Source of the DNA: a virus
Taxonomy: Duplodnaviria > Heunggongvirae > Uroviricota > Caudoviricetes
Direction: 5' to 3' (one strand)
DNA: 47,980 bases
Virus record (IMG/VR): IMGVR_UViG_2565956724_000008
Span: 1 to 47,980 of that record
Shown here: in pieces, positions 21,630-45,968 of the stretch
How positions within the stretch are numbered: the first letter of the stretch is position 1
Layout of the letters: every line of letters starts with the position of its first letter
Translations under genes and position numbers: made by a program
The notes under the pieces: generated by a model
Told to the model about the DNA's origin: nothing
Databases searched by the model: none
Seen by the model: only the letters and a program-made list of their open reading frames with translations

Positions 21630-22233
21630 TTCGCGACTGCTGCCGACCGGCTCATCACCGCTTGAAGTCGCTGCCGCAAAAGCCTGTGCGGAAATTGAAA
21701 AAACGCCGGTCAGTATTCGTGAGCTGTGGAACCCGGACACCTGCCCGGCAAATCTGCTGCCGTGGCTGGCGTGGTCATTTTCGGTTGACCGCTGGGATGA
21801 TAAGTGGCCGGAAGCGACAAAACGCGCTGTTATCCGCGATGCGTATTTCATTCACTGCCATAAGGGCACTATAGGCGCAATCCGGCGTGTGGTGGAGCCG
21901 CTCGGCTATCTGATTGAGGTGAGGGAGTGGTGGCAGCTCAACGAGGAGCCGGGGACGTTCCGCATCGTTGTTGGCGTGCTTGAGCAGGGTATTACCGAGG
22001 AAATGTATCAGGAGCTGGAGCGCCTCGTTGCTGATGCAAAACCGGCAAGCCGCCATCTGACGGGACTGGCTATCAGTTTAAGTACAACCGGCAACATTTT
22101 TGCCGGTGCGGGATGCTATCACGGTGACGCCCTGACGGTTTATCCCTACACCCCGGAGGCCATTATTGTCGGAGGGGATTATTTCCCGGCCTCGGCCATT
22201 CATTTAATTGATAACCTGAGAGTAAACGCATGA
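21622..22233 (+). CDS. I: baseplate/tail protein I
   Basis: 203 aa in the P2 I position immediately upstream of the tail fibre gene (P2 I is shorter). Confidence 0.75.
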   Translation: MSDSRLLPTGSSPLEVAAAKACAEIEKTPVSIRELWNPDTCPANLLPWLAWSFSVDRWDDKWPEATKRAVIRDAYFIHCHKGTIGAIRRVVEPLGYLIEVREWWQLNEEPGTFRIVVGVLEQGITEEMYQELERLVADAKPASRHLTGLAISLSTTGNIFAGAGCYHGDALTVYPYTPEAIIVGGDYFPASAIHLIDNLRVNA

Positions 22234-23537
22234 CAGTGAAATACTACGCCATTCTGACTAATCAGGGCGCAGCACGGCTGGCTAACGCGACGATGCTCGG
22301 CAGTAAGCTGAATCTGACGCAAATGGCCGTTGGTGATGCGAATGGTGTCTTGCCGACACCAGACCCGGCACAGACAAAACTGATTAACCAGAAACGCATC
22401 GCGCCGCTGAATCTTCTGAGTGTTGACCCGAACAACCAGAGCCAGATTATTGCGGAGCAAATCATCCCTGAGAACGAGGGCGGATTCTGGATCCGTGAGA
22501 TTGGGCTTTATGATGATGAAGGCGTACTCATTGCGGTGGCGAACTGCCCGGAAACGTACAAACCGCAGTTGCAGGAAGGCAGTGGTCGTACCCAGACTAT
22601 CCGCATGATTCTGGTTGTCACGAATACCGAAGCTATTACGCTGAAAATCGACCCGTCGGTGGTACTGGCGACCCGTAAATACGTGGATGATGAAGTCCTG
22701 GAATTAAGGCTGTATGTGGATGACCAGATGAGAAACCACATTGCCGCACAGGATCCTCATACCCAGTATGCACAGAAATATAATCCGACATTTACCGGAG
22801 AACCAAAAGCGCCGACGCCTGCCGCAGGGAATAACACCACGCGGATTGCGACCACTGAGTTTGTTCAGGCCGCTATTACCGCTCTGATTAACGGTGCGCC
22901 AGCCACGCTGGACACACTGAAAGAAATTGCCGCAGCCATTAACAATGACCCGAAATTCAGTACCACCATTAACAATGCGCTGTCAGGTAAGCAGCCACTG
23001 GATGAGACGCTGACTCATTTGAGTGGAAAGGATGTTGCCGGTCTTCTCGCATACCTTGGTTTGGGAGAAGGCTCTGCATTACCTGTTGGTGTGCCTGTTC
23101 CATGGCCTTCAGCCACACCGCCAACAGGCTGGCTGAAATGCAACGGTGCGGCTTTTTCTGCTGAAGAATACCCGGAACTGGCAAAGGCTTATCCGACAAA
23201 TAAATTGCCTGATTTACGTGGTGAGTTTATTCGTGGCTGGGATGACGGGCGCGGTATTGATGCAGGACGTGTTTTATTGAGCATTCAGACAGGGATGCTG
23301 GAAAAACACCGCCATATTGTTGTTGCCAATGATGGTTACGACACAAAAGATGAATGGGAACTGGCTACGATTTTCAAAAAGACATACACACAAGGACGGG
23401 GACTTGATGCCGCAAATACAGGAGGGAGTCTGATCCCATCACCGACACTTCATTCACGAGGGAGTATCGGTAATACTGGCGGGAGTGAAACCCGTCCACG
23501 AAATATTGCATTTAACTATATCGTGAGGGCTGCATAA
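22230..23537 (+). CDS. H: tail fibre protein H (constant N-terminal part plus variable tip Sv)
   Basis: 435 aa; N-terminal region resembles P2 H (MAVGD..., ELGLYDD...LIAVAN); C-terminal ~155 aa has a Mu/P1 S-like tail-collar pattern (PVPWPSATPPTGWLKCNGAAFS...). The constant/variable boundary falls at the hix-like site. Confidence 0.85.
   Translation: MTVKYYAILTNQGAARLANATMLGSKLNLTQMAVGDANGVLPTPDPAQTKLINQKRIAPLNLLSVDPNNQSQIIAEQIIPENEGGFWIREIGLYDDEGVLIAVANCPETYKPQLQEGSGRTQTIRMILVVTNTEAITLKIDPSVVLATRKYVDDEVLELRLYVDDQMRNHIAAQDPHTQYAQKYNPTFTGEPKAPTPAAGNNTTRIATTEFVQAAITALINGAPATLDTLKEIAAAINNDPKFSTTINNALSGKQPLDETLTHLSGKDVAGLLAYLGLGEGSALPVGVPVPWPSATPPTGWLKCNGAAFSAEEYPELAKAYPTNKLPDLRGEFIRGWDDGRGIDAGRVLLSIQTGMLEKHRHIVVANDGYDTKDEWELATIFKKTYTQGRGLDAANTGGSLIPSPTLHSRGSIGNTGGSETRPRNIAFNYIVRAA
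23044..23069. other. hix/gix-like 26-bp invertase crossover site (left)
   Basis: TTCTCGCATACC-TT-GGTTTGGGAGAA: two 12-bp imperfectly palindromic half-sites around a 2-bp core, close to Hin hixL (TTCTTGAAAACCAAGGTTTTTGATAA, recalled); arm symmetry ends 1 bp after it. Confidence 0.6.
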
Positions 23538-24139
23538 TGGATAACGCCGTATTAAATAGCGAGCTTATTGCCACGAAGGCGGGGAATATTACCGTCTATA
23601 ACTATGATGGTAAAACTCGGGAATATATTTCTACTTCAAATGAATATCTTGCCATTGGTGTCGGTATCCCTGCATATTCCTGTCTGGATGAACCTGGTAT
23701 ACATAAGGCGGGTTATGCTATCTGCCGTTCGATGGATTTAAACTCATGGGAATATGTGCCAGACCATCGCGGTGAAATCGTCTATAACACCGAAACGGGA
23801 GACGCCAAAGAAATCACAGCTCCGGGTGATTATCCTGAAAATACAACCACTATCGCCCCGTTAACGCCATTCGATAAATGGGATGGTAAGAAATGGGTGA
23901 CCGATACTGAGGCACAGCATAGCGCCGCAGTAGACGCGGCAGAAGCACTGCGTCAGTCACTGATTGATACTGCAATGGCTTCCATCAGTCTGATTCAACT
24001 GAAATTGCAGGCCGGGCGGAAGCTGACGCAGGCAGAAACCACCCGACTTAACGCTGTGCTGGATTACATTGACGCGGTGACGGCAACAGATACGAGCACC
24101 GCGCCGGATGTCATCTGGCCTGAACTGCCGGAGGCGTAG
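23537..24139 (+). CDS. G: tail fibre assembly protein (P2 G / Mu U-like)
   Basis: 200 aa immediately downstream of H; C-terminus ...APDVIWPELPEA is typical of tail-fibre-assembly chaperones. Confidence 0.75.
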   Translation: MDNAVLNSELIATKAGNITVYNYDGKTREYISTSNEYLAIGVGIPAYSCLDEPGIHKAGYAICRSMDLNSWEYVPDHRGEIVYNTETGDAKEITAPGDYPENTTTIAPLTPFDKWDGKKWVTDTEAQHSAAVDAAEALRQSLIDTAMASISLIQLKLQAGRKLTQAETTRLNAVLDYIDAVTATDTSTAPDVIWPELPEA

Positions 24140-24551
24140 GCCATTCAATATCTGGCGCACCGGAAGTATCGACCAGTTCCAGTGCGTCCAGGTAATCCAG
24201 CCACAAATTATATTGCGCCAGTTCGTCACCTTTCAGACGACCAATAGCCGCTTTACCAGGCCATTGTTTACTGTTCATATAATCGTTGGCCTGATTAATC
24301 AATTGCTGCTTCTCCAGTTCGGCTGCAGCAATTTGTTCCTCATGTGTTGGTGGTGGAATTTCGGACCATGCAGGAAAACCATTTTCTCCAGCGATACGGA
24401 TTTTTCCTTTCGGCGGTAATCCGGAAAACTCAATATACACTTGCTCATCAACTTCAACAGCATCATCTGGCCATGAGTCAGCTTGAGTGTAATCCTCTTT
24501 CATCTCCAGCGGATAGAAAGAGTTTGTAGTCGCGGAATATATGTAATTCAT
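24111..24551 (-). CDS. alternative tail fibre assembly protein (Mu U'-like)
   Basis: 146 aa, convergent with G and overlapping its 3' end by 29 bp; C-terminus ...APDIEWPTPPA resembles that of G; GGAG ribosome-binding site upstream. Confidence 0.7.
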   Translation of the reverse strand: MNYIYSATTNSFYPLEMKEDYTQADSWPDDAVEVDEQVYIEFSGLPPKGKIRIAGENGFPAWSEIPPPTHEEQIAAAELEKQQLINQANDYMNSKQWPGKAAIGRLKGDELAQYNLWLDYLDALELVDTSGAPDIEWPTPPAVQAR

Positions 24552-24572: not shown

Positions 24573-25751
24573 TTAACAGCCTAACGCTAAAAATGAAGCG
24601 CCGAGGCCAGGATTACTGGCTCTGGATATAAATTTAACCGGGTCGGGACTAAAACCTGCACAGGCAATATAACCAACAGCCCCGCTATCTGGTGTATAGT
24701 CTTGTGAGACCAAAACACGCAGACATCTGTTTGGAAATGCAATTGGGAAATGGGTTACTACATCCTGTGCAATGCCTGGAGCGCCGATTGAGCCCCACTG
24801 AAGAATAAAACCTGATGGTAATTTTTGATATCCAGTACCTGAAACAGAAAGCGTGAAGCTACCCATATCAGGTATCTGATTCGCCCCTGTCCCTACATTC
24901 CTTTTAGCCGCTTCTCCCAAACCAAGGTATGCGAGAAGACCGGCAACATCCTTTCCACTCAAATGAGTCAGCGTCTCATCCAGTGGCTGCTTACCTGACA
25001 GCGCATTGTTAATGGTGGTACTGAATTTCGGGTCATTGTTAATGGCTGCGGCAATTTCTTTCAGTGTGTCCAGCGTGGCTGGCGCACCGTTAATCAGAGC
25101 GGTAATAGCGGCCTGAACAAACTCAGTGGTCGCAATCCGCGTGGTGTTATTCCCTGCGGCAGGCGTCGGCGCTTTTGGTTCTCCGGTAAATGTCGGATTA
25201 TATTTCTGTGCATACTGGGTATGAGGATCCTGTGCGGCAATGTGGTTTCTCATCTGGTCATCCACATACAGCCTTAATTCCAGGACTTCATCATCCACGT
25301 ATTTACGGGTCGCCAGTACCACCGACGGGTCGATTTTCAGCGTAATAGCTTCGGTATTCGTGACAACCAGAATCATGCGGATAGTCTGGGTACGACCACT
25401 GCCTTCCTGCAACTGCGGTTTGTACGTTTCCGGGCAGTTCGCCACCGCAATGAGTACGCCTTCATCATCATAAAGCCCAATCTCACGGATCCAGAATCCG
25501 CCCTCGTTCTCAGGGATGATTTGCTCCGCAATAATCTGGCTCTGGTTGTTCGGGTCAACACTCAGAAGATTCAGCGGCGCGATGCGTTTCTGGTTAATCA
25601 GTTTTGTCTGTGCCGGGTCTGGTGTCGGCAAGACACCATTCGCATCACCAACGGCCATTTGCGTCAGATTCAGCTTACTGCCGAGCATCGTCGCGTTAGC
25701 CAGCCGTGCTGCGCCCTGATTAGTCAGAATGGCGTAGTATTTCACTGTCAT
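24573..25751 (-). CDS. H: tail fibre protein H with alternative variable tip (Sv')
   Basis: 392 aa; N-terminal ~280 aa identical to the left-arm H, C-terminal ~112 aa unrelated to Sv; the switch occurs exactly at the right hix-like site. Confidence 0.8.
24912..24937. other. hix/gix-like 26-bp invertase crossover site (right, inverted)
   Basis: Reverse complement of the site at 23044..23069. Confidence 0.6.
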
Positions 25752-26359
25752 GCGTTTACTCTCAGGTTATCAATTAAATGAATGGCCGAGGCCGGGAAAT
25801 AATCCCCTCCGACAATAATGGCCTCCGGGGTGTAGGGATAAACCGTCAGGGCGTCACCGTGATAGCATCCCGCACCGGCAAAAATGTTGCCGGTTGTACT
25901 TAAACTGATAGCCAGTCCCGTCAGATGGCGGCTTGCCGGTTTTGCATCAGCAACGAGGCGCTCCAGCTCCTGATACATTTCCTCGGTAATACCCTGCTCA
26001 AGCACGCCAACAACGATGCGGAACGTCCCCGGCTCCTCGTTGAGCTGCCACCACTCCCTCACCTCAATCAGATAGCCGAGCGGCTCCACCACACGCCGGA
26101 TTGCGCCTATAGTGCCCTTATGGCAGTGAATGAAATACGCATCGCGGATAACAGCGCGTTTTGTCGCTTCCGGCCACTTATCATCCCAGCGGTCAACCGA
26201 AAATGACCACGCCAGCCACGGCAGCAGATTTGCCGGGCAGGTGTCCGGGTTCCACAGCTCACGAATACTGACCGGCGTTTTTTCAATTTCCGCACAGGCT
26301 TTTGCGGCAGCGACTTCAAGCGGTGATGAGCCGGTCGGCAGCAGTCGCGAATCACTCAT
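25748..26359 (-). CDS. I: baseplate/tail protein I (mirror copy)
   Basis: Mirror of 21622..22233; identical translation. Confidence 0.75.
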
Positions 26360-27260
26360 CCGAGCCTCCGGTCACGACGCTGTATTCGGTACAGAAAGAC
26401 GCCTGCGTATTGTTGAGCACGATGTCGGCCAGCGGTGCAGCCAGTTCGACACGCTGCACGCCTTCCACATGCAAAGCGGCATAAATGGCAGACAGTCGGA
26501 TGTCGCGCCCCAGCCGGTGCTGTGCCGTGATATACGCTTCCAGTTTTTTCACGGCGGCAGCGCGAATGGGTTCGCTTTCGGGGCCAGGGTAAAGGTAAAG
26601 CGTGGCATTTATCTGGTATTCAACGATGACGGCAGACTGCACGGTCACACGGTCGGCCACCGGTCTGACGTCCTCACCATTAAGGGCGTTGCGCACCACC
26701 GCCAGCAGGTCTTCGGATGCCACACCGTTATTTTCACGTGACAGCACAGAGATGGTGACGCAGGCCGGAGAAGGACTGGTGACAGAGATATCTGCGACAC
26801 GCCCGTCGGCACTTCGACCATGATACTGATAGGCCCCCACCGACCCGGCGACGCTTAAACCTTCAAACGCCTGCTGAATACGCAGACGATAATCGGTGTC
26901 AGATTCCATCACGGCCGGTGTCGGCGGGAGGGTCGAATCATCTGCCGGGGTGATAATCAGGCGTGTGGTGTTGTAATTGGCACCAATCACATCAAGGTCA
27001 TTACCGGCGGCACAGGCCAGCATCACCGCCCGTGCAGCCTCATTCACACGCTGACGCCAGATAAGCTCACGATAAGCATTTTCCTCCAGCAGTTTGACGA
27101 GAGGCTCAGATTCCAGCGTCAGGGTACGGGCGACCGCCTCCTGCTGGTCTTCCGGGTAAAGGGAAATCAGTGTCGCCTTGCGTTCGGCAAGAATGGTTTC
27201 AAAGTCCAGCTCCTCGACCACATCCGGTGCGGGTAGCTGGTTCAGGTCGATAATCGGCAT
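26352..27260 (-). CDS. J: baseplate protein J (mirror copy)
   Basis: Mirror of 20721..21629; identical translation. Confidence 0.85.
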   Translation of the reverse strand: MPIIDLNQLPAPDVVEELDFETILAERKATLISLYPEDQQEAVARTLTLESEPLVKLLEENAYRELIWRQRVNEAARAVMLACAAGNDLDVIGANYNTTRLIITPADDSTLPPTPAVMESDTDYRLRIQQAFEGLSVAGSVGAYQYHGRSADGRVADISVTSPSPACVTISVLSRENNGVASEDLLAVVRNALNGEDVRPVADRVTVQSAVIVEYQINATLYLYPGPESEPIRAAAVKKLEAYITAQHRLGRDIRLSAIYAALHVEGVQRVELAAPLADIVLNNTQASFCTEYSVVTGGSDE

Positions 27261-27264
27261 GGTT

Positions 27265-27612
27265 TCAACTCACAGGGATGGTTAACGAAAGTGGCTGGCC
27301 GGTGTCGTTGTGCTGGCCGGTTAACGTGACCGTCATTCGCCCGTCAAAACTGCGCGCCGTGGTGACGGATGACAGGGTGACGCGGGGTTCCCATTTCAGC
27401 ACGGCCATGTAACAGGCGACCTTAATCTGCAACTCAAGCGCCGGGGTCTGCGGCTGGTCAATCATTGACGCCAGCAACGAGCCGTAATCACGACGCATCA
27501 CCCGTGAGCCGACCGGTGTGCGCAGGATATCGCCGATACTCTGGCTGATATGCTCAAGGTCAGTGACAGTCAGGCCATCACTGCGATTCATTCCGAGATA
27601 ACGCGCTGTCAT
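27265..27612 (-). CDS. W: baseplate protein W (mirror copy)
   Basis: Mirror of 20369..20716; identical translation. Confidence 0.85.
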   Translation of the reverse strand: MTARYLGMNRSDGLTVTDLEHISQSIGDILRTPVGSRVMRRDYGSLLASMIDQPQTPALELQIKVACYMAVLKWEPRVTLSSVTTARSFDGRMTVTLTGQHNDTGQPLSLTIPVS

Positions 27613-28244
27613 AGAGGACTCCCGGTTGTGCCGCCGCTGTCGCCGGGGTGTTTATGGGTATGCAGTACCTTACCGTTTGATGAGAGTTCACCGCCGGTGT
27701 GTTCAATGTTGCCGCGCATCGTCCCGCCCTTCTGCACTTCCAGCGTGTCGGTAATCAGCCTGTTGGTGCAGACCACCTCCGGTGCGTCCATGGTGATGCG
27801 GGTTGATGCTTTCACCATGACCACCGGCACCGTGGCAGTAACAGAATCAGAAGCCGTCACGCTGGCCGTTTTAATTCCGCTTACCATGAGTGCACTGGTT
27901 TCGGGTTCATACTCAATCACCGCCCCGTCAGGGAAACGGATATACAGGGCATCCGCCGACGCAGACGGCGCGGGGTTATCACCGGAATAAATCCCCGGCA
28001 GAACAAACGCCGTGTCAAGTTCACCGCCCACGGCCAGAATCAGCACCTGTTCCCCCACGGAAGGTGCCCACCATGTACGCGAACGCCCGGCACGATGGGT
28101 CAACCACTGAAGCCAGTCGGTGCACATGCCGCCGGTCTGCACACGGCAGCGACCGGCGTTAAGGTCGGTTTCGACGATAACGCCGGTGCGAATCATATTG
28201 CGCAGTGCGCGCGCGAGTTCCTGAATATTTGCGAGAGTGTTCAT
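27609..28244 (-). CDS. V: baseplate spike/assembly protein V (mirror copy)
   Basis: Mirror of 19737..20372. Confidence 0.85.
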   Translation of the reverse strand: MNTLANIQELARALRNMIRTGVIVETDLNAGRCRVQTGGMCTDWLQWLTHRAGRSRTWWAPSVGEQVLILAVGGELDTAFVLPGIYSGDNPAPSASADALYIRFPDGAVIEYEPETSALMVSGIKTASVTASDSVTATVPVVMVKASTRITMDAPEVVCTNRLITDTLEVQKGGTMRGNIEHTGGELSSNGKVLHTHKHPGDSGGTTGSPL

Positions 28245-28321
28245 AACGGGAAGGATGCCGCTGGACGATACCAGCAGCAATCATGGAGGGTTCTGTCAGC
28301 TGTGACACAACATAACAAATA

Positions 28322-29077
28322 TTAGTTGTAGCACTTCTCTATAATCTTCATACACTCCTCATGAGCTAAATCATGGCTGTCAAATTCTTTATTAAAAAAG
28401 AAGAAAAACGCCTTCTTAACCTGAGGAATTTCAATAAAAATAAATTCATCAACCTTATGAAAGAAATGAAAACTCTTGTTTGATGTTTCAAAAACCATCA
28501 AAGAATTATGTTTTTTATCCTTCCATTTCGACATCAGATTGCGTCGCGATTTTCGTATAATCCTGAAGACATCCCCCGGCGTCGTATCGACATTCCCCCA
28601 AAACATTGCAACCGGGAAGTTTGCAAGAAACGGGATATAATCACCACCTTTATACCTGAGAAAGCGGTTCCGCAAATCCATTAATTGCAACTTAAAACCC
28701 ATGTATTGCAACCACCATATGATGCAATCATACTCATAATCTGTTAACTCCTCCCCTCTCTTTTCCGTAAGAAATTTCTTCAGGTTATACTCAAACACTC
28801 CCAGCAAATCAGAATTGCACACTCTGCATGCTGGTACAGTGGCTTTAATGTAATGAGTTGACTGATTATTCTTTTTATTAATTAAAGATTTTTCAGCATT
28901 TGACTCAAAGGCCCACTGAGGAATAATGTGCTCACGAGTAATATCGTCAGAACTCCCGCATAACACACATATATCAGCATTATGGTCAGCAATAATACAA
29001 TCCATAACTTTCTTTTGAGAATGCTTTACTCTTTTTCTCAAAATGGAAAACTTTTTATCCACAAACACCCGTCTCAT
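28322..29077 (-). CDS. HNH-motif AT-rich cargo protein (mirror copy)
   Basis: Mirror of 18904..19659; identical translation. Confidence 0.6.
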   Translation of the reverse strand: MRRVFVDKKFSILRKRVKHSQKKVMDCIIADHNADICVLCGSSDDITREHIIPQWAFESNAEKSLINKKNNQSTHYIKATVPACRVCNSDLLGVFEYNLKKFLTEKRGEELTDYEYDCIIWWLQYMGFKLQLMDLRNRFLRYKGGDYIPFLANFPVAMFWGNVDTTPGDVFRIIRKSRRNLMSKWKDKKHNSLMVFETSNKSFHFFHKVDEFIFIEIPQVKKAFFFFFNKEFDSHDLAHEECMKIIEKCYN

Positions 29078-29532
29078 ATAACATCTTTCGATAGAATCAC
29101 TAATAACTCCCTTTCTATCAATTGTATAGATTCCTTGTCAAAACCAAATAACTCACGAACAGGATATTCCACCACAGCACTATTACGCCCCGGCTTATCC
29201 CTAAGCCCTAATTGATGTACTCGCGCAATTCGTTGTACTCCGCTGGCAAACGCCACCACCGCCGCACTCTCGCTACCTGTTGCTTTCATAAACCGGTTAG
29301 TGCGTAATTTCACAAACATTTCCCGCTTTATCCGGCCTTTCTTATTTCGTACTGGTTGGTTTTTTCTCGGTACATACGGCGTACCATCCGGGGCTTTTTG
29401 TAATTTAATTCGCTGCTGCTGGCGCTGGCGCAGCTTCTTCGCAATATCTACCGCCAGTCGCCGACGCCCTGACGGTGACAGCGACTCAATCAGTCCGGTC
29501 AGCCGGTCTTCAAAACGCTTAAACTCATTCAT
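29074..29532 (-). CDS. S: tail completion protein S (mirror copy)
   Basis: Mirror of 18449..18907. Confidence 0.8.
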   Translation of the reverse strand: MNEFKRFEDRLTGLIESLSPSGRRRLAVDIAKKLRQRQQQRIKLQKAPDGTPYVPRKNQPVRNKKGRIKREMFVKLRTNRFMKATGSESAAVVAFASGVQRIARVHQLGLRDKPGRNSAVVEYPVRELFGFDKESIQLIERELLVILSKDVI

Positions 29533-29992
29533 CCCACTTGCTCACCAGTTCGCCATTGATATACAGCTCCACCGGGCGGGTGACCGGCTCCGGCGGCGGA
29601 GGTTCCGGGATATTCTTCACATGCAGCGCGCCGTCCACCTCACTGACCAGCGTGCGCTCGGTCAGCATCAGGCTGATGCTGATATCAAAGCTGCTGTCAT
29701 TGTTGATGTCCGCATAAAACGTGAAGCCCTTTTTCTGGCCTTCATCGGTGGTCATGATGTCGGGCTGATTTTCCCGCAGCCACGCCAGCACCGGCACGAT
29801 GAGCAGGTCAAAATCACCGGTAAAGTCGGTCACAATCACATTGAGCGTGTAACGCTTTTCGAATGACAACGACGTCGCCAGCGTGGAGGCAATACTCCCG
29901 TTATCCACGAATATCCGCAGCATCTCGGGACTGGTTTTCAGCACCGTGACGGCATCAGTCAGCGCCCTGCGCAGGCTGTCGGGTTTGAGCAT
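29525..29992 (-). CDS. R: tail completion protein R (mirror copy)
   Basis: Mirror of 17989..18456. Confidence 0.8.
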   Translation of the reverse strand: MLKPDSLRRALTDAVTVLKTSPEMLRIFVDNGSIASTLATSLSFEKRYTLNVIVTDFTGDFDLLIVPVLAWLRENQPDIMTTDEGQKKGFTFYADINNDSSFDISISLMLTERTLVSEVDGALHVKNIPEPPPPEPVTRPVELYINGELVSKWDE

Positions 29993-30245
29993 CGTTTTCG
30001 TCCTGACAGTGTTTAATCATTTTTACCTGGCTGGCACAGCGTGCCAGCGCGTTCTCAAGCTGTCGGATATCGGCACTTAAATCGCCGTTCGTCTCCGGGT
30101 CACTGCCCGGCATCGGGCAAAGGCTCACTTTCGGGCAGGCGTTGGCGACAATCACTGGCGTCGGTGCAGGCCGGGCGCTGGTGCAACCGGCGCACAGCAT
30201 CAGGCAGGCCAGCGCCGTACCAGCGGCGAAAATCTTCGTTTTCAT
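29955..30245 (-). CDS. lysC: o-spanin LysC (mirror copy)
   Basis: Mirror of 17736..18026. Confidence 0.7.
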   Translation of the reverse strand: MKTKIFAAGTALACLMLCAGCTSARPAPTPVIVANACPKVSLCPMPGSDPETNGDLSADIRQLENALARCASQVKMIKHCQDENDAQTRQPAQGAD

Positions 30246-30525
30246 TCAGTAACCTCGTGATGGTTTTCTCGCGCTGTGCTTCACGCTTCGCCGCGTTCTC
30301 CAGTTCCTGACGCAGTGCCACCTGCGCCAGCTCGTTTTTGTCTGCCCTGGTGATGGCAACATGAAGCTGATTTTTCAGCATGGTGATGGTCGTCTGCTGT
30401 TCACTGGCGACGTTATTCGCCCTGTCCAGCGAGGCGCGCAGGCTGGCATTTTTGTGTTTCACCAGAAACAGACCGGTCACCGCCAGCGATAACAACACGA
30501 CCAGCACAATCATCAGCTTTGACAT
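30100..30525 (-). CDS. lysB: i-spanin LysB (mirror copy)
   Basis: Mirror of 17456..17881. Confidence 0.75.
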   Translation of the reverse strand: MSKLMIVLVVLLSLAVTGLFLVKHKNASLRASLDRANNVASEQQTTITMLKNQLHVAITRADKNELAQVALRQELENAAKREAQREKTITRLLNENEDFRRWYGAGLPDAVRRLHQRPACTDASDCRQRLPESEPLPDAGQ

Positions 30526-30938
30526 AGTTCCCGCCCCTCAAGACGCTGACGACAGGCTTTACGTATCAGCCGGAAAAACAGCGACGCCACAAGATAAATC
30601 AGCGCGGTAAAAATCCACCCGGCAGCGACCAGCGAGATAAACGTCGCCACCATCACTACCAGAGCCGCCGCCCGCCTGCGCCACGGCACCGGCTGCAAAA
30701 ACAGCGACGTGACAATCTTCACGGCCAGCGATTCCGGTGGCAGCTCCCGCCCGTAGCGTTCCAGCACATACTCAGTGGCATACACGCCGACACCACCGGC
30801 AACCACACAGATAACCGTCGCCAGAATCGCCCAGGCGGCGACAAAATTGACGGCCACGCTCTGCGGGTAAATCAGGGACAGTGCCAGCATCAGCGCCAGC
30901 GACACATTCAGCATCAGTGAAAGGGATAATTTCTTCAT
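30513..30938 (-). CDS. lysA: LysA membrane protein (mirror copy)
   Basis: Mirror of 17043..17468. Confidence 0.75.
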   Translation of the reverse strand: MKKLSLSLMLNVSLALMLALSLIYPQSVAVNFVAAWAILATVICVVAGGVGVYATEYVLERYGRELPPESLAVKIVTSLFLQPVPWRRRAAALVVMVATFISLVAAGWIFTALIYLVASLFFRLIRKACRQRLEGRELCQS

Positions 30939-30952
30939 GGTGTTTACTCCGT

Positions 30953-31450
30953 TTAAGCTGGTACACCGCCGGCGGTACGCCAGACGGTGACCAGTTTTTC
31001 CAGTGAATGCTCACGCTGACCGTAACCGGCACCCGGCAGGGACGCCCAGATATTGCGACAGCGTGAAATAGCGCGCTCAATGCGTCCCGCCCGGATGTCA
31101 TCCAGTGCACCGCGTTCGCGGATCAACTGAATGGCGAGCCTGTCCTGTGACAACGGACTGAAATCCGGCAGGGCAAGCTGTTTGCGGTAGTGCGGCCAGA
31201 ACAGGTAAAGCTGCTGATAGCGACCGGAGGCCGTGGATTTTTCACCGCGACGGTTAAACACCTTCGCCGGTCGGCCATGCGCGAACGGGTGGTCACTGTA
31301 GTCAGTGAAAATTTCCGGCTTCCCGTCCAGTCCGGTGACTATCACGTCATAGCCCCGGTTTTTCGTCAGCGGATGATTCGCCGTCCCTTCGGACACGGCC
31401 AGCATGTCGAGAAAGGCCGCGATATTCTGATGCGTGTTAATTACCGGCAT
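30953..31450 (-). CDS. K: endolysin K (mirror copy)
   Basis: Mirror of 16531..17028. Confidence 0.8.
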   Translation of the reverse strand: MPVINTHQNIAAFLDMLAVSEGTANHPLTKNRGYDVIVTGLDGKPEIFTDYSDHPFAHGRPAKVFNRRGEKSTASGRYQQLYLFWPHYRKQLALPDFSPLSQDRLAIQLIRERGALDDIRAGRIERAISRCRNIWASLPGAGYGQREHSLEKLVTVWRTAGGVPA

Positions 31451-31731
31451 TACTGTTTCCCCCTGCCCTTAAAACGGCGCTGAATGGCAATCTCAATCAC
31501 CTGATAACCGGCGATACCCAGCATGGAGCCGATACCGCACACCGCAGGCAGTGACAGGTCAGGAAACTGCACCAGAACAACACCGGCAACCATCGAGACA
31601 AAACCACCGAGCAACATGCGCCCGATAAACAGACGCGGGGTGATGGGTTCACCACCGGCAAGCACCTTGCCGACAACAATCAGCACCCCAATCATGAAAA
31701 GCGACAGGACGCTTTTTTCTTCTGCTGTCAT
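31450..31731 (-). CDS. Y: holin Y (mirror copy)
   Basis: Mirror of 16250..16531. Confidence 0.8.
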   Translation of the reverse strand: MTAEEKSVLSLFMIGVLIVVGKVLAGGEPITPRLFIGRMLLGGFVSMVAGVVLVQFPDLSLPAVCGIGSMLGIAGYQVIEIAIQRRFKGRGKQ

Positions 31732-31734
31732 GCG

Positions 31735-31938
31735 TTACTCCCACAGATTGACAGTTTCAGCCACGGGCGCGGTCTGAACGTCGGGCAGTTCGACGGCGGT
31801 GCCGTGCGGCAACACCGCACCCAGTTCAGCCAGTCCCGGATTTGCGGCGAGCACGGTCTCAACCACGCCCTCAGTGCGCCCGTAATACCGGACACAAATG
31901 GCGTCGAGCGTGTCGCCCTGTAGCGCAAAGGTCTTCAT
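31735..31938 (-). CDS. X: tail protein X (mirror copy)
   Basis: Mirror of 16043..16246. Confidence 0.8.
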   Translation of the reverse strand: MKTFALQGDTLDAICVRYYGRTEGVVETVLAANPGLAELGAVLPHGTAVELPDVQTAPVAETVNLWE

Positions 31939-32447
31939 CAGATTTGACTCACGATGCAGCGCGGCTTGCCCTGGATGCGCGCCACTGCCCAGCGCATATC
32001 CCGCCACAGCTCATCAATGGTGCTGTCAATGCTGTCGGCCTTCTTGTCGCCTTTTGCACTGGCATCCACACCGCGATAACGTTCATAAAGCGACGCGGTC
32101 GCCATCGCACACACGGCGCGCTCGTAGTAAAAAACTTTGATGCTTTCACCGTCGATGTCGTCCGCCGGGACGTCCGCCAGACGCGTAAAACCGGCGGCAA
32201 TTTTCTGTTCGCGGTACTCGTACAGCTCCGCATTCGTCTCCGCCATGCCTGACTTGATGGCCTCACGCAGACGGGCGGGGGCGACGGTCTGCTCAAGGCG
32301 CATACGTTCCCGGACGCGCTTCGGGTCGATATCGGGAAAAAAGAACGTGTTTTTAATCACCGGCTCGTCGCCTGCCGGTTGCGGGATGACCACCGTACCC
32401 TCACCGGACACGGGAGCCTCCTTTCGCGGAATAATCAGCGTCATCAT
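31938..32447 (-). CDS. L: head completion protein L (mirror copy)
   Basis: Mirror of 15534..16043. Confidence 0.8.
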   Translation of the reverse strand: MMTLIIPRKEAPVSGEGTVVIPQPAGDEPVIKNTFFFPDIDPKRVRERMRLEQTVAPARLREAIKSGMAETNAELYEYREQKIAAGFTRLADVPADDIDGESIKVFYYERAVCAMATASLYERYRGVDASAKGDKKADSIDSTIDELWRDMRWAVARIQGKPRCIVSQI

Positions 32448-32546
32448 GACTACCTCTGAAAAGTCGGGCGGTGGACGCCGGTGCAGTGTCAGGTGATTCA
32501 CCCTCACTGACCGGCGTGCCGCCCTGGCGCGGGGCGCATTCGGTTG

Positions 32547-33290
32547 TTAACTGGCTTTCTTTTTCGGGCGTCCACGTTTTGCCGGTGTCACGCTCCGGAT
32601 CTTACGCGGGGCGCGGGTGGCCGCTTTGGGCTGCGGCTCCGGCTTCGGTTTCAGCTCCCGCTCCAGTCGTTCAATCTCTTTTTTGACGCCTGCCTGACAG
32701 TCGAGCTGTGTCGCACGTTGCAGGTGAGCCAGCGCACCGGCGGCATCACCACCGTCACGCAGAAACAGACCGGTGATTTTGTGCAGCTTTGCGCGCACTT
32801 CATCAGGCATGTCAGCCGTGGCGGTCAGTTCAAGGGTCTCCGTCAGCAGGCGGGTATCCACAGACTCACCGGCAGCGTGAGCGCGCATGGCCGCGAGCGC
32901 TACCTCCTCGGTGAACATGTACGGCGGGGTACGGCGGTGTTTACCCGGCATGGTCAGACCGTACTTCAGGGCATAACGGGCAATCTCCAGCGCACCGGCA
33001 ATATCGCCGGTATCCAGACGCCACAGCATGACCGTCATCAGAATGTCATCCTGTGCACCTTTGCCCTGCTCCAGCACGCCGTTCACCCACGGCAACCAGA
33101 ACGGCAGCAGTTCGCGTTTTTTCGCGGCCTTCAGCTCTTTTGAATAAATCGCTTTCAGTGTGCGCTGGTCTGCGGCGAGCTTAACCAGCATCTGCTCATA
33201 GACAGTTGCATGTCGCAGCGGGGCGGCTTCCCGCTGCGCGGTCATCGCTGCCGAGACCCGCATCATGTGGCGCTGTGCGGGACTCGTCAT
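32547..33290 (-). CDS. M: terminase small subunit M (mirror copy)
   Basis: Mirror of 14691..15434. Confidence 0.85.
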   Translation of the reverse strand: MTSPAQRHMMRVSAAMTAQREAAPLRHATVYEQMLVKLAADQRTLKAIYSKELKAAKKRELLPFWLPWVNGVLEQGKGAQDDILMTVMLWRLDTGDIAGALEIARYALKYGLTMPGKHRRTPPYMFTEEVALAAMRAHAAGESVDTRLLTETLELTATADMPDEVRAKLHKITGLFLRDGGDAAGALAHLQRATQLDCQAGVKKEIERLERELKPKPEPQPKAATRAPRKIRSVTPAKRGRPKKKAS

Positions 33291-33293
33291 CGG

Positions 33294-34367
33294 TTACGCT
33301 CCCGGCTCTGCGGTCGCTTTAGCCAGTGTGGAGAAATCACCGACCTTAATTTTTTCCACCAGACAACCGGCGGCGTAGTCTTCCACCACGTAATCAATGT
33401 TCATTGACTCGTAGTTCTCCACGCGGTCGAGTTTCGGGTTTTCCTCAATCACGCGGCGATGGCTGTCATCCATGTAGTAGATGGACAGGTTTTCCAGCTT
33501 TGTGATGAGCATCGCATCCGCCGGAAAGTACGGGACGCGTACCGCCGGCAGGTTACCGATGCGTTTCTGGCTGATGATGACGTCAGCGGCCAGCATTTCG
33601 CTGTTGTCCTGCTCCTTGTTGACGATGGGAAAATACTTGTCCGCCAGTAGCTGACGTCCCACAACCACCACAAGGTCAGGGTCTTCCTGATACCACGGCT
33701 CAATCAGGTTGTTGGTCGCATCCATCACCAGTGCGTCAAGGCTGGCATAATCACCGCCCTTACCCACGCGGATAACCTCAGAGGTGGTGTGCCCTTCCTC
33801 GTCAGTGACCTTGCTCATCACGCGCGCCGGGGCTTCATTGCGGTATTTCTGCAGCCAGCCGACCGCCACATCCTGCAGCATCGGATTGCTGCTGCGGTCA
33901 GAGGTTTCGGCACGCCTCACGCCGTTAAAACCGGCCATGATTAAATCAAGGGACTGGCGTTTGATAATGGCGTTACGGACACGGAGCTGGAAATCCTGAT
34001 AACGCGCCCACAGGTCCAGCGTTTTGTAGCGGATATAAAAATCGAAGTTAATCTGGTCGCATTCGTACTTGTTTGACGCCAGCTTCGAGAAGTCCTTCGG
34101 CTGACGCTCGGTGCCACCGGCGGTGTCGGTGGTGCTGGCGATGGAGCCGGTGACACCGATGCCAATTTTTTCCCCTTTCATTTCGCTGACCGGCACAATG
34201 TTGATGCGGGTCAGAAAGTCAGAGGACTCCTGCATGGTGTTCATCAGGGTCTGGGTGACCGACGGTTCAACGGTGAATTTTTTCGACACATCACCGGCGT
34301 CGATGCCGTTCAGTTCGGCAACACGGGACAGGTAGGCATTAAATTTAAAGCGGGTTTCCTGGCGCAT
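33294..34367 (-). CDS. N: major capsid protein N (mirror copy)
   Basis: Mirror of 13614..14687. Confidence 0.9.
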   Translation of the reverse strand: MRQETRFKFNAYLSRVAELNGIDAGDVSKKFTVEPSVTQTLMNTMQESSDFLTRINIVPVSEMKGEKIGIGVTGSIASTTDTAGGTERQPKDFSKLASNKYECDQINFDFYIRYKTLDLWARYQDFQLRVRNAIIKRQSLDLIMAGFNGVRRAETSDRSSNPMLQDVAVGWLQKYRNEAPARVMSKVTDEEGHTTSEVIRVGKGGDYASLDALVMDATNNLIEPWYQEDPDLVVVVGRQLLADKYFPIVNKEQDNSEMLAADVIISQKRIGNLPAVRVPYFPADAMLITKLENLSIYYMDDSHRRVIEENPKLDRVENYESMNIDYVVEDYAAGCLVEKIKVGDFSTLAKATAEPGA

Positions 34368-34425
34368 AGTTTTTCCTGAAATTAAGGGTTAATCGTGAAG
34401 GTTTTCCCGGACTGACTGACGCCGG

Positions 34426-35280
34426 TCAGCAGTTCGTCATCAGGGCGTCACCGCCACCACCGGTGGCCTTGCTGCGGCGCTGCTGGGTCAGACTTTCGGT
34501 GTGGTCGAGACTGTTTTTCAGGCGGGTGAATGCCTGGCTGGTTTCATCCGCCCTGTCAGTCACATCCTGCTTAAGTGCGGAAAAAGCGGTTTCCATCTCA
34601 GCGAGGCGCTGCTCAGTGGCGCTCAGTTTTTCCTGCACATGTTCAGCAACAGCGGTCACCGCTTCATGCACGTCATTCAGACGGGCGTCATCGCTGGCCT
34701 GTTTGCGGCCAAAAATGGACTTCACCTTTTCGGTCAGGGCGGTGAACACGGTTTCAGGCAGGTCTTCAAATTCCAGCTCAACGGGCGTTGCCACTGAAAT
34801 CAGGTTTTCAGGGCTTAATTTGAAGCGGTTCAGGGGGTTGTGTTTTGCCGTGCGGCAGAATTCCAGGTATTCCGTGCCGAGGCTTGCCGGGTCATCGGTG
34901 ACGGCCAGACCCACCAGATAACATTTGCCGGTATTGGCAAAGTTCGGCTGAATTTCCATTGAGGTATAGACCTTCTGCGCGGCCTTGTTCATCGCGATAA
35001 GGTCATCGGTCGGGGTGATTTTCGCAAACAGCGCCCATTTGCCTTTCAGCGCCGAATCATCGTCAATCTTTTCGGCCTTCAGTTCGGTCACATCGCCATA
35101 ACGCTTAAAAATACCGTCAGGCAGGATGCCGCGCAGATGTTCCAGGTTAATGCGGCAACCATAGACACGCGGGTCAAAGGTTTCGGCCATTTCCTGAATA
35201 TCCTGCGCACTGATGACACGCCCGTCACAGGTGTCACCCTCAACGCCGATACGAAAGAATTTTGAGACTTTTTTTGCCAT
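34426..35280 (-). CDS. O: capsid scaffolding protein O (mirror copy)
   Basis: Mirror of 12701..13555. Confidence 0.85.
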   Translation of the reverse strand: MAKKVSKFFRIGVEGDTCDGRVISAQDIQEMAETFDPRVYGCRINLEHLRGILPDGIFKRYGDVTELKAEKIDDDSALKGKWALFAKITPTDDLIAMNKAAQKVYTSMEIQPNFANTGKCYLVGLAVTDDPASLGTEYLEFCRTAKHNPLNRFKLSPENLISVATPVELEFEDLPETVFTALTEKVKSIFGRKQASDDARLNDVHEAVTAVAEHVQEKLSATEQRLAEMETAFSALKQDVTDRADETSQAFTRLKNSLDHTESLTQQRRSKATGGGGDALMTNC

Positions 35281-35453
35281 TGTCAGGAGTCCTGAATAGT
35301 GATTAGAGGAGTCACATGTCGGCATCAGTTTCCCGACGATGCGCATCCTCCGCCATCAGTCCCGGATGGCTTATCACTGACACAACAGCACCTTAGCGAA
35401 TCGCGGGGCGCGACTCAGTAGCCTTGCCGTGTATTCATCACGGCGAGGTATTC

Positions 35454-37226
35454 ATGACCATCACCACAGACACCACTCTTTTACACGACCCGCGTCGTCA
35501 GGCGGCGCTGCTGTACTGGCAGGGGTTTTCCGTGCCGCAGATTGCCGCCATGTTGCAGATGAAACGCCCGACGGTGCAGAGCTGGAAACAGCGCGACGGC
35601 TGGGACAGCGTTGCCCCCATCAGCCGTGTCGAAATGAGTCTGGAAGCGCGGCTGACCCAGCTCATCATCAAACCGCAGAAAACCGGCGGTGACTTCAAGG
35701 AAATTGATCTGCTCGGACGCCAGATTGAACGACTGGCACGGGTCAACCGTTACAGTCAGACCGGCAACGAGGCAGACCTTAATCCGAACGTCGCTAACCG
35801 CAACAAAGGCGGGCGTCGCAAACCGAAAAAGAATTTTTTCAGTGACGAGGCCATCGAAAAGCTGGAGCAGATTTTCTTTGAGCAGTCTTTCGACTATCAG
35901 TTGCACTGGTATCGCGCCGGGCTTGAGCACCGCATCCGCGATATCCTGAAATCCCGCCAGATTGGCGCGACGTTTTATTTTTCCCGCGAGGCACTGCTGC
36001 GCGCCCTGAAAACCGGCCATAACCAGATTTTTCTGTCGGCCAGTAAAACGCAGGCGTATGTGTTCCGCGAATACATCATCGCCTTTGCCCGTCTGGTTGA
36101 CGTTGACCTGACCGGTGACCCGATTGTCCTGGGCAATAACGGCGCAAAACTGATTTTTCTCGGCACCAACTCCAACACCGCGCAGAGCCATAACGGCGAC
36201 CTGTACGTCGACGAGATTTTCTGGATCCCGAATTTTCAGGTACTGCGTAAGGTGGCATCAGGTATGGCCTCACAGAGTCACCTGCGCTCGACCTATTTCT
36301 CCACCCCGTCCACGCTGGCGCACGACGCCTACCCGTTCTGGTCAGGTGAACTGTTCAACCGGGGACGCGCCAGCGCCGCCGAACGCGTGGAAATCGACGT
36401 CAGTCATAACGCCCTTGCCGGTGGGCTTCTCTGTGCGGACGGCCAGTGGCGGCAGATTGTCACCATTGAGGACGCCCTGAAAGGTGGCTGCACGCTGTTC
36501 GACATTGAGCAGCTCAAACGTGAAAACAGCGCCGACGATTTTAAAAACCTGTTCATGTGTGAATTTGTTGACGACAAGGCGTCGGTGTTCCCGTTCGAGG
36601 AGCTGCAACGCTGCATGGTCGACACGCTGGAAGAATGGGAAGACTATGCGCCGTTTGCCGCGAATCCGTTCGGCTCCCGCCCAGTATGGATTGGTTACGA
36701 CCCGTCACACCGTGGCGACAGCGCCGGATGCGTGGTGCTGGCACCACCGGTGGTGGCCGGTGGCAAATTCAGAATACTTGAGCGTCACCAGTGGAAAGGC
36801 ATGGACTTTGCCACCCAGGCGGAATCCATCCGCAAACTCACCGAAAAATACAACGTCGAATACATCGGTATTGATGCCACCGGCCTCGGTGTCGGCGTGT
36901 TCCAGCTCGTGCGCTCGTTCTATCCCGCCGCGCGCGACATCCGCTACACGCCGGAAATGAAAACCGCAATGGTGCTCAAGGCAAAAGACGTTATTCGCCG
37001 TGGCTGTCTGGAATATGACGTCAGCGCCACCGACATCACCAGCTCGTTTATGGCTATCCGCAAGACCATGACCAGCAGCGGACGCAGCGCCACCTATGAG
37101 GCCAGCCGCAGCGAGGAAGCCAGCCACGCCGACCTCGCCTGGGCGACCATGCACGCTCTGTTAAATGAGCCACTCACCGCCGGTATCAGCACCCCGCTGA
37201 CATCCACCATTCTGGAGTTTTACTGA
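35454..37226 (+). CDS. P: terminase large subunit P (mirror copy)
   Basis: Mirror of 10755..12527; ATG at 35454 checked in sequence. Confidence 0.85.
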   Translation: MTITTDTTLLHDPRRQAALLYWQGFSVPQIAAMLQMKRPTVQSWKQRDGWDSVAPISRVEMSLEARLTQLIIKPQKTGGDFKEIDLLGRQIERLARVNRYSQTGNEADLNPNVANRNKGGRRKPKKNFFSDEAIEKLEQIFFEQSFDYQLHWYRAGLEHRIRDILKSRQIGATFYFSREALLRALKTGHNQIFLSASKTQAYVFREYIIAFARLVDVDLTGDPIVLGNNGAKLIFLGTNSNTAQSHNGDLYVDEIFWIPNFQVLRKVASGMASQSHLRSTYFSTPSTLAHDAYPFWSGELFNRGRASAAERVEIDVSHNALAGGLLCADGQWRQIVTIEDALKGGCTLFDIEQLKRENSADDFKNLFMCEFVDDKASVFPFEELQRCMVDTLEEWEDYAPFAANPFGSRPVWIGYDPSHRGDSAGCVVLAPPVVAGGKFRILERHQWKGMDFATQAESIRKLTEKYNVEYIGIDATGLGVGVFQLVRSFYPAARDIRYTPEMKTAMVLKAKDVIRRGCLEYDVSATDITSSFMAIRKTMTSSGRSATYEASRSEEASHADLAWATMHALLNEPLTAGISTPLTSTILEFY

Positions 37227-38260: not shown

Positions 38261-38429
38261 ACATCGCCGCCTGCGGGCGGCTTTTTTACAACCCGCCATC
38301 ACGCCCTCACACGCTCACCACCGCACAAAACATCCCACAGACACACCAACGCCCCGGCGAACAATCTAAACGCCATCACGACGCGCTCAGACGCTGAAAA
38401 AATAAAATCAGCACCACCGCCAGCGCGCA

Positions 38430-38448
38430 GTGCTTTCCCCGCCTCGCC
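38430..38448. other. cos cohesive-end site (mirror copy)
   Basis: gtgctttccccgcctcgcc, the reverse complement of the left-arm cos; checked in sequence. Confidence 0.55.
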
Positions 38449-38753
38449 CGCCCGCTTCATGAGACGGTTTTAATGCAGTTGCATGAAATAACCTAAAGCG
38501 CACCAGCTCTGACATAACAACATTAGTAAGCATCTGACAAATGCATGCAAAATCATTCAACGCTATGGTACATCATAAACTATTAGTACAAGCTAATTAG
38601 CCTCTAGCGAACAATAAAAAAGTATTTCTCCCTCATAGCTTGATCTCAGTCACAAAATGCAAATAAGAAAAACGAAAACCCATTGAATTTCATGTAAAAA
38701 TAGCCATACCTAGGATTATTCTTACTTCACACAGCATAATTTATGGAGGGAAA

Positions 38754-41348: not shown

Positions 41349-41379
41349 ATAAACAAAGGGCAAGAACACCTTCTTGCCC
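41347..41379. terminator. bidirectional terminator (mirror copy)
   Basis: Mirror of 6602..6634. Confidence 0.6.
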
Positions 41380-41551
41380 TATATTATTTCATATAGTTAC
41401 TTATCCTTAATCCAACCCATAACAATCGCATGTTGAAAACTTAGCCGTTATTTTTATTCATATCACTCGAAACTATTGTACTCTAACCGAATGGTTATAC
41501 AGATAAATAAAATTCTTAGTCTCATCAACATCTCTTTGTCAAACACCATTA

Positions 41552-44837: not shown

Positions 44838-44900
44838 AACTTTCTCCAGGCAAAAAGAAGCCCCGCACGATTAAGTGCGTTAAAAACTCTGGTTAATTAC

Positions 44901-45854: not shown

Positions 45855-45935
45855 GTCGTCCTCTAGCCCTCATGAATTGCGTTTAATGTCTTATAATGCC
45901 TTTTAGTGCCCACATCCAAGCACTAAACAATCTAC

Positions 45936-45965: not shown

Positions 45966-45968
45966 ACC

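Follow-up and report, generated by a model that had tools for sequence, protein, structure and literature searches.

A P2-like prophage tail fibre whose tip is very probably exchanged by site-specific DNA inversion

The window, the whole 47,980-nucleotide stretch of viral DNA that was analysed, carries the tail fibre gene of an Escherichia coli prophage of the P2-like (Peduoviridae) type at the position of P2 gpH. It is very probable that the last 155 amino acids of this fibre are swapped by site-specific inversion of the Pin/Gin/Cin family and that the window itself is a fold-back contig. Under this model, two promoterless cassettes, each coding for a tip and its chaperone, lie between a pair of inverted 26-bp crossover sites. 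In the first orientation, transcription of the late V-W-J-I-H operon would give a 435-aa fibre with a collar tip of the gp37/gp12 type together with a TfaE-like chaperone, and after inversion the product would be a fibre of 392 aa whose tip is gp53-like (R-pyocin-foot-like), together with a TfaP-like chaperone. The flip would be driven by a serine invertase whose gene adjoins the segment on its right in real genomes, and the progeny particles would consequently be of two adsorption specificities. The biology of this locus is already known, and identical proteins are present in RefSeq. Indeed, both the mosaicism of tail fibres and the inversion of host-range segments entered the textbooks with the studies of Mu, P1, e14, p15B and P2 H.

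The fibre gene and its constant part

The window holds a P2-like gene set (integrase, gpA, portal, terminase, P2 capsid, Baseplate_J, Tail_P2_I and PF12571), and positions 9495-23070 are collinear with, and 99.3% identical to, the complete prophage of strain ECE313. One ORF of this region, of 251 aa at 18904-19659, has a PHROG of unknown function as its sole match, and neither PADLOC nor Pfam returned anything for it. Two fibre reading frames share a common beginning, and the features on which they are built are as follows.

22230-23537, plus strand: Sc-Sv fibre ORF, ATG start, 435 aa
24573-25751, minus strand: Sc-Sv' fibre ORF, 392 aa
22230..23070, plus strand: Sc, the constant tail-fibre part, aa 1-280, the 280-aa prefix common to both fibre ORFs
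22230..22679, plus strand: P2-H-type N-terminal baseplate-attachment domain, aa 1-150 (PF12571, E 1.4e-62)
22782..23027, plus strand: shaft repeat, aa 185-266, common to P1 S and P2 H

Pairwise BLASTP comparison of the two ORFs shows an identical N-terminus of 280 aa, after which they part at a precise point, ..AYLGLGE|GSALPV in the fibre with the Sv tip and ..AYLGLGE|AAKRNV in that with Sv'. The 435-aa ORF lies after the V, W, J and I baseplate genes, with Baseplate_J and Tail_P2_I genes upstream of it by ORF order and Pfam, and before a Caudo_TAP chaperone gene (PF02413); the RefSeq annotation of an identical locus agrees with this arrangement. It is thus the gpH-position tail fibre of the prophage, and its constant part would be co-transcribed with the V-W-J-I baseplate genes.

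The earlier note on this DNA had likened the first ~280 aa to P2 H, and this is borne out. In addition to the PF12571 domain, residues 26-158 share 53% identity with P2 H 27-159 (E 8e-47), and residues 185-280 share 43% with P2 H 256-364. The shaft repeat within the latter region is nearer to P1 S than to P2 H, with 74% identity to P1 S 257-329 and 61% to P1 S 331-412, as against the 43% found with P2 H. It is also correct that both versions of the fibre, at 435 and 392 aa, fall far short of P2 H, which has 669 aa.

Crossover sites, invertase and the palindromic window

The exchangeable part of the locus is a segment of 1,840 bp (23071-24910) in which the Sv and U genes face the Sv' and U' genes.

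23044..23069, plus strand: left 26-bp crossover site, TTCTCGCATACC-TT-GGTTTGGGAGAA, within the fibre ORF and coding for ..LAYLGLGE
23071..23537, plus strand: Sv tip, aa 281-435 (155 aa), with a PF07484 tail-collar domain
23537..24139, plus strand: U, tail-fibre assembly chaperone for Sv (PF02413)
24111..24551, minus strand: U', chaperone for Sv' (PF02413)
24573..24910, minus strand: Sv' tip, aa 281-392 of the alternative fibre (112 aa), with a gp53-like C-terminal domain (PF21882)
24911..47980, minus strand: fold-back copy that reproduces 1-23070 exactly in reverse complement

The left site differs at 3 positions from the left site of e14, at 5 from cixR of P1 and at 9 from gix of Mu. The right site, which was read in real genomes, is identical to the right-hand site of e14 and shares the TT core and the inner half-site with the left one, so that in a real genome the two form a 27-nt inverted repeat. 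A third crossover site, as in the multi-state switch of an EPEC P2-like prophage, was sought in the window, and the search gave two mirror copies only. The gene order in real genomes is Sc, Sv, U, U', Sv', a 197-aa recombinase with Resolvase and HTH_7 domains, and the sheath gene; to the right of the segment the sequence accordingly runs from TTCTCCCAAACCAACGTTTATGAAAA into the recombinase and on into the tail sheath gene. This invertase shares 87% identity with PinE, 80% with Gin and 78% with Cin, and complete genomes in which the segment matches that of the window at 99.9-100% identity have it immediately to the right of the segment. As in other members of its family, inversion would be expected to depend on Fis and an enhancer in the 5' part of the invertase gene; by identity comparison alone, a candidate enhancer matches that of P1 cin at 56 of 72 nt (55 for gin and 57 for pinE).

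Both orientations occur in nature. Among complete E. coli genomes, Sc is joined to Sv in 46 (counted as matches over at least 80% of the query) and to Sv' in 36, and 66 blocks of an assembly collection contain the identical 392-aa fusion protein, as encoded by genomes in the flipped state. One flipped locus (L006) shows exact reciprocal junctions at the left site. GPEC1209 and GPEC1210, chicken isolates from one series, are in opposite states at 99.8% identity.

These observations bear on whether the switch might be a fossil, the orientations in the databases being old fixed states of a segment that inverts no longer. Many invertible segments of prophages are located in defective prophages, and the window itself is without an invertase, both of which speak for such a view. 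It is nevertheless unlikely, given that both states are found among loci at 99.7-100% identity with precise reciprocal junctions, that the 197-aa invertase ORF is intact in real genomes, and that a fold-back contig implies both junctions in one sample. Furthermore, related loci of the P2-like and e14 types invert in culture: inversion has been measured directly in P2-like E. coli prophages, and the invertible loci of EPEC P2-like prophages and of K-12 e14 are phase-variable by sequencing and PCR (PMC4272514). An active switch in the present prophage is the reading that we retain.

The missing invertase is explained by the structure of the window, which is a perfect palindrome. Over 23,070 nt, positions 24911-47980 repeat 1-23070 in reverse complement with 0 mismatches, and this fold-back copy stands where the true right site, the gene for the invertase and the tail genes from FI to ogr should be. 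A full-length Sc-Sv' ORF is likewise present in the window only because the constant part repeats in mirror image. The palindrome is most likely a fold-back assembly artefact of a population containing both orientations, in which the assembler would have passed into the segment at the Sc|Sv junction of one orientation and out of it at the Sc|Sv' junction of the other. Such a contig therefore requires that both orientations were present in the sequenced sample, and the segment was presumably inverting there. A search of the literature on palindromic or fold-back contigs at invertible segments found nothing useful.

The same structure could in principle be real, a head-to-head inverted dimer of 48 kb formed when a Pin-type invertase joined the right and left sites of two prophage or phage copies. 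From the geometry of the sites, such a crossover would yield exactly the order seen in the window, Sc-Sv-U-U'-Sv'-Sc (reverse complement), and were it true, tail-fibre invertases would occasionally make large palindromic rearrangements in vivo. We regard this as very unlikely. Invertases of the Din family have a strong preference for intramolecular inversion. In all complete genomes examined, the right side carries the invertase and tail genes, and the two arms, which agree at every one of their 23,070 nt and end at mirror positions, are what is expected of an assembler walking one path twice. Under the artefact reading everything to the right of position 24910 is a mirror copy, which would mean that other findings in the window appear twice and that the invertase is reported missing.

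Identity of the tips

In the Sv tip a tail-collar domain is followed by an HxH motif and a variable insert, and the chain ends in a returning C-terminal strand. PF07484 is recognised at aa 287-334 with an E-value of 4.5e-15 and 55.8 bits against a Pfam cut-off of 24. The closest solved structure is the tip of T4 gp37 (2XGF, E 5e-17), in an alignment that takes in the terminal NIAFNYIVR strand, and gp12 is matched as well; 1OCY and 5IV5 match at E 1e-5 to 1e-6. The tip is 100% identical to StfE of e14 over ~65 aa at its start and 14 aa at its end, the two having diverged between. By these comparisons Sv is a collar tip of the T4 gp37/gp12 type that is closest to e14 StfE. Of its 6,592 homologues, the best 120 each share at least 93% identity with it. 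The chaperone U is correspondingly 88% identical to e14 TfaE and barely similar to P2 gpG (E 0.04).

The Sv' tip is shorter, at 112 aa as compared with 155 aa, and unrelated to Sv (E 0.1), both of which had been stated before. It carries PF21882 at aa 310-392 of the alternative fibre (E 5.6e-14, 52.9 bits against a Pfam cut-off of 24.9). Its PDB matches, to 4MTM and to the R-pyocin fibres 6CL6 and 6CT8, are weak (~1e-3). It is about 50% identical to the fibre tips of SfI, SfII, SfIV and SfV and only 32% identical to the C-terminus of StfP. By these similarities Sv' is a gp53-like domain of the R-pyocin-foot type with relatives on SfV fibres. The SfV fibre gene with the related tip, orf21, comes after homologues of Mu gp45-48, that is, on a Mu-like tail, so it is the tip called unrelated in the earlier note that has relatives of this kind. 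U' resembles e14 TfaP in its C-terminal half (61% identity) and U only in the last ~70 aa; the two chaperone genes are convergent, and their 3' ends overlap by 29 bp.

The expressed tip had been proposed to be a receptor-binding domain of the Mu S/P1 S type, gained from a Mu-like phage. The motifs on which this was based, PVPWP, GWLKCNGA and SETRPRNIAFNY, are indeed present in Sv, but they belong to PF07484 and not to Mu S or P1 S. The Gin/Cin-type switch machinery, the position of the crossover site in a motif homologous to ..NLGLQE of Mu and ..YLGLRE of P1, and the closeness of the shaft repeat to that of P1 S speak for an origin of the tip in Mu S or P1 S. Such an origin is nevertheless hardly tenable and was rejected on sequence comparison: when the two tips were compared by domain-wise BLASTP with Mu S, Mu Sv', P1 S and P1 Sv', E>2 resulted throughout, the domain is of the T4 gp37/gp12 type and the collar is identical to that of e14 StfE. 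What the locus has in common with Mu and P1 is instead the machinery of the switch and the P1 S-like shaft repeat in its constant part. BLASTP of both tips against P2 H likewise gave chance matches only (E>2).

Sv shares with T4 gp37 and gp12 the domain family, the HxH motif right after the collar and the returning NIAFNYIVR strand, and Sv' belongs by sequence to the same domain family as AP22 gp53 and the foot of R-pyocin fibres. Outside the collar identity is low, at ~25% for Sv against gp12 over the whole tip (tblastn), and both tips are much smaller than these proteins, from which receptor specificity is not transferable. By analogy with relatives of solved structure, both tips probably bind lipopolysaccharide or other surface sugars; homology gave no clue to a particular receptor, neither tip being close enough to any fibre whose receptor has been characterised.

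Related switches and the sharing of tips

The nearest counterpart of the locus is the P segment of e14 in K-12 (stfP/tfaP, tfaE/stfE, pinE), in which Sc, site, Sv and chaperone are likewise followed by the convergent chaperone, Sv', site and invertase. The two differ in the constant part, which in e14 is the ~100-aa StfP N-terminus of a lambdoid remnant, whereas here it is a 280-aa P2-H-type anchor and shaft on a P2 baseplate. P2 itself has gpH and gpG at the same gene position after V-W-J-I, with the same PF12571 domain, a related shaft repeat and a ..YLGLQE motif where the distal part of H starts, like ..LGLGE here. However, its 669-aa fibre is non-invertible and has a Mu/P1 S-like distal half that neither of the present tips matches, and P2 carries Z/fun at the position where real genomes of this locus have the invertase.

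The same two-state mechanism and invertase family operate in the G segment of Mu (S/U, S'/U', gin) and the C segment of P1 (cin), where the crossover site is also inside the fibre ORF. The present segment is smaller, at 1.84 kb compared with ~3 kb in Mu and 4.2 kb in P1, its core dinucleotide is TT as in P1 and not TC as in Mu, and the tips and N-terminal anchors of the Mu and P1 fibres are unrelated in sequence to those of the present fibre. P1-like plasmids with tandem cassettes, which we take to resemble the Min type of p15B, carry multiple cassettes and are presumably multi-state, whereas two sites and two states are found here. Cassettes of P1-like plasmids have 87-90% DNA identity to the Sv tip and another has 91% to the Sv' tip, and in one such plasmid five tandem promoterless tip cassettes lie beside a recombinase and a P1 S-like fibre gene.

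Tips are also shared among prophages. A 100%-identical Sv tip is joined to unrelated N-termini exactly at the ..LGLGE junction. One such stem is a 256-aa fibre of the e14 StfP type, with an N-terminus 96% identical to StfP. Another is found in a different type of prophage, as a 272-aa fibre with a matching cassette, in which the chaperones are of 200 and 147 aa and a Gp53-like_C ORF was called in one of the two loci. As to uniform similarity to a single fibre family, phrog_327 matches aa 1-434 of the 435-aa fibre, and therefore the whole architecture already exists among sequenced phages, while a further 66 PHROG families match as well, those listed being mostly segmental (for example aa 1-159, 164-271 and 283-435). 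The proposal of modular exchange of host-range determinants thus holds for a P2-H-type anchor bearing tips that are exchangeable across phage types, but not for its Mu component, as neither tip is homologous to the receptor-binding domains of Mu S or P1 S.

As a discovery the locus carries little weight, and its practical value is as a warning about fold-back contigs and as an illustration of the seam at which tips are joined. That seam, ..LGLGE, is coded by the crossover site itself, and across it identical tips are found on stems of the P2-like, the e14-like and a third prophage type. A seam of this kind serves as a design rule in re-engineering the host range of phages or tailocins.

A composite tail fibre on a P2-like prophage

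A P2-like prophage occupies the left 23 kb of the window and has genes for an integrase, the gpA replication protein, a portal, a large terminase and a P2-family capsid protein. The fibre locus and two further ORFs are laid out as follows.

Features of the fibre locus and the left arm
20721-21629, Baseplate_J gene, in the group directly upstream of the fibre ORF (domain search)
21622-22233, Tail_P2_I gene, between the Baseplate_J gene and the fibre ORF (domain search)
22230-23537, + strand, tail fibre ORF, ATG start, 435 aa (ORF call)
23537-24139, Caudo_TAP chaperone gene, after the fibre ORF (domain search)
24573-25751, - strand, alternative fibre ORF, 392 aa (ORF call)
6633-9227, - strand, 864-aa ORF between replication gene A and the portal gene
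18904-19659, + strand, 251-aa ORF between tail-completion gene S and baseplate gene V

The 435-aa ORF is a real gene and its host is E. coli. Complete E. coli genomes contain the entire fibre locus at 99-100% identity, the protein being annotated as 'phage tail-collar fiber domain-containing protein' (WP_000216992.1), and a complete prophage of E. coli ECE313 is collinear with 9495-23070 of the window at 99.3% identity.

The 435-aa and 392-aa ORFs share an identical first 280 aa, the constant part Sc, and diverge past ..AYLGLGE into the alternative tips Sv and Sv'. The earlier note had described this N-terminal part as P2 H-like, which holds for the anchor: aa 1-150 match PF12571 (E 1e-62) and aa 26-158 are 53% identical to P2 H 27-159 (E 8e-47). 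However, the shaft repeat at aa 185-266 is nearer to P1 S (74% identity to P1 S 257-329, 61% to 331-412) than to P2 H 256-364 (43%), so that the constant part is itself composite. As had also been pointed out, both proteins are far shorter than P2 H, which has 669 aa. Likeness along the full length to one family is found in part: phrog_327 spans aa 1-434, and the exact architecture is therefore already present among sequenced phages, whereas most of the others listed among the 67 PHROG families that match the fibre span a single segment.

Both further ORFs occupy sites familiar from P2. The 864-aa ORF sits in a low-GC island (31-33%, against ~55% around it) at the old/tin cargo position of P2; a SIR2-like domain (PF13289) makes up its N-terminus, and it is similar to the SIR2 modules found in PADLOC defence families (E 5e-59). 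At this place the related prophage of ECE313 encodes an RNA-directed DNA polymerase. The 251-aa ORF, at the position of P2 orf30, has a reduced GC content (~44%) and is retained in related prophages. It has a single match, PHROG 10503 (function unknown), and none in Pfam or PADLOC; the CxxC...EH...CxxC motifs of its product are reminiscent of an HNH nuclease.

Tip modules and their exchange

Sv (aa 281-435) carries a tail-collar domain (PF07484, aa 287-334, E 4.5e-15), and its best solved relatives are the receptor-binding tip of T4 gp37 (2XGF, E 5e-17), a phage short tail fibre (9CUY, E 3e-16) and T4 gp12. The 2XGF alignment takes in the HxH motif directly past the collar (KHRH in Sv, AHSH in gp37) as well as the terminal NIAFNYIVR strand. 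Relatives of Sv occur in 1,168 phage genome records and include T4-like gp12 (~25% identity across the full tip) and lambda Stf (collar only). Sv' (aa 281-392) is a Gp53-like_C domain (PF21882, E 5.6e-14) with weak matches to 4MTM and R-type pyocin fibre tips; fibre tips of Shigella phages SfI, SfII, SfIV and SfV are ~50% identical to it, and in SfV, homologues of Mu gp45-48 precede orf21.

Against Mu S, Mu Sv', P1 S, P1 Sv' and the P2 H distal half, neither tip gave a significant match (E>2 throughout). Given these values and the PF07484 and gp37 matches, the motif pattern that the earlier note had read as Mu S or P1 S is a collar/gp37 pattern; judged by sequence comparison, its assignment of the tip to either phage is wrong. 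The mosaic fibre itself is borne out, and that observation was largely correct: the anchor is of P2 H type, the shaft nearer to P1 S, and the tips, of which Sv' is the shorter, show no relationship to each other.

Host-range modules were further proposed to pass between P2-like and Mu-like phages. Tips are indeed swapped between fibre stems, but with other partners. A 100%-identical Sv tip is joined exactly at ..NLGLGE to a StfP-type N-terminus of e14, the E. coli K-12 element with the invertible P segment, in a fibre of 256 aa that shares 96% identity with StfP at its N-terminus. An identical tip also ends a 272-aa fibre from a further type of prophage (L016 and L017:7001-9269; Dit_like, Pam3_gp18, Sheath_initiator, Baseplate_J, Phage_Wedge1), where the cassette includes two tail-fibre chaperones (200 and 147 aa) and a Gp53-like_C ORF, the latter called in L017; no recombinase gene was called to its right in either locus (0/2). 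P1-like plasmids hold tip DNA at 87-91% identity. One of them, the 96-kb pCR-0005_2 (L013:5029-7375), has five tandem promoterless tail-fibre tip cassettes, one 90% DNA-identical to the Sv tip, adjoining a recombinase gene and a 972-aa P1 S-type fibre gene, in what looks like a multi-inversion (Min-like) system. K-12 strains also carry the Sv' tip (78% DNA identity).

A finer level of mosaicism appears to exist within the tip. Sv (23071-23537) and e14 StfE (L012:5120-5656) are identical in the collar (~65 aa) and the final 14 aa, the ~80 aa between having diverged, and this stretch is probably the receptor-contacting insert.

A Pin-type switch and the palindromic window

The system is a two-state tail-fibre switch of the Pin type, carried by a P2-like prophage. 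At the aa 280 seam lies a 26-bp left crossover site, TTCTCGCATACC-TT-GGTTTGGGAGAA (23044-23069), which differs in 26 nt from the e14 left site by 3 mismatches, from P1 cixR by 5 and from Mu gix by 9. It encodes ..YLGLGE, where Mu has ..NLGLQE, P1 ..YLGLRE and P2 H ..YLGLQE. The right-hand site in real genomes, TTTTCATAAACG-TT-GGTTTGGGAGAA on the opposite strand, is identical to that of the e14 P segment. As just two crossover sites were found, the switch has two states. The invertase that adjoins the segment in real genomes shares 87% identity with PinE of e14, 80% with Gin of Mu and 78% with Cin of P1; within the initial 90 nt of its gene, 56/72 nt match the cin enhancer, compared with 55/72 for gin, an identity count that carries no measure of Fis binding. 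The chaperones agree with the relatives of their tips: U, encoded beside Sv, shares 88% identity with TfaE, and U', encoded beside Sv', shares 61% with TfaP in its C-terminal half. The two proteins resemble each other only in their last ~70 aa (38% identity), and their convergent genes overlap by 29 bp at the 3' ends (24111-24139). Since sites, invertase and chaperones all resemble those of e14, its P segment is the closest characterised system, here coupled to a P2-type fibre stem.

The earlier note overlooked that the window folds back on itself: 24911-47980 is the exact reverse complement of 1-23070 (0 mismatches), leaving 23071-24910 (1,840 bp), at the centre of the palindrome, as the sole unique stretch, and each left-arm gene or feature is therefore listed twice. 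In real genomes this segment is followed by the second crossover site, a 197-aa Resolvase+HTH_7 recombinase and the sheath, tube, tape-measure, D and ogr tail genes; in the window, which lacks the invertase and the FI-to-ogr tail genes, the mirror copy stands in their place. This is most simply accounted for if the assembler walked into the segment by way of the Sc|Sv junction and out again by way of Sc|Sv', the junction belonging to the opposite orientation. A real inverted dimer from intermolecular recombination predicts the same sequence as such a fold-back assembly, and we consider it highly improbable. For a fold-back assembly to arise, both junctions, and so both orientations, would have had to be present in the sequenced population.

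Both states are also found in complete E. coli genomes, 46 with Sc-Sv (at a query coverage of 80% or more) and 36 with Sc-Sv', many at 99.7-100% identity to the window. GPEC1209 and GPEC1210, chicken isolates of one series, have opposite orientations; in a flipped-state genome the junctions are exactly reciprocal at the core, and the exact 392-aa fusion protein occurs in 66 blocks of a public assembly collection. Read-pair and PCR work has shown that loci of this sort are phase-variable in K-12 e14 and in two P2-like prophages of EPEC E2348/69 (PMC4272514). The switch belongs to a known kind of system, already demonstrated in close relatives.
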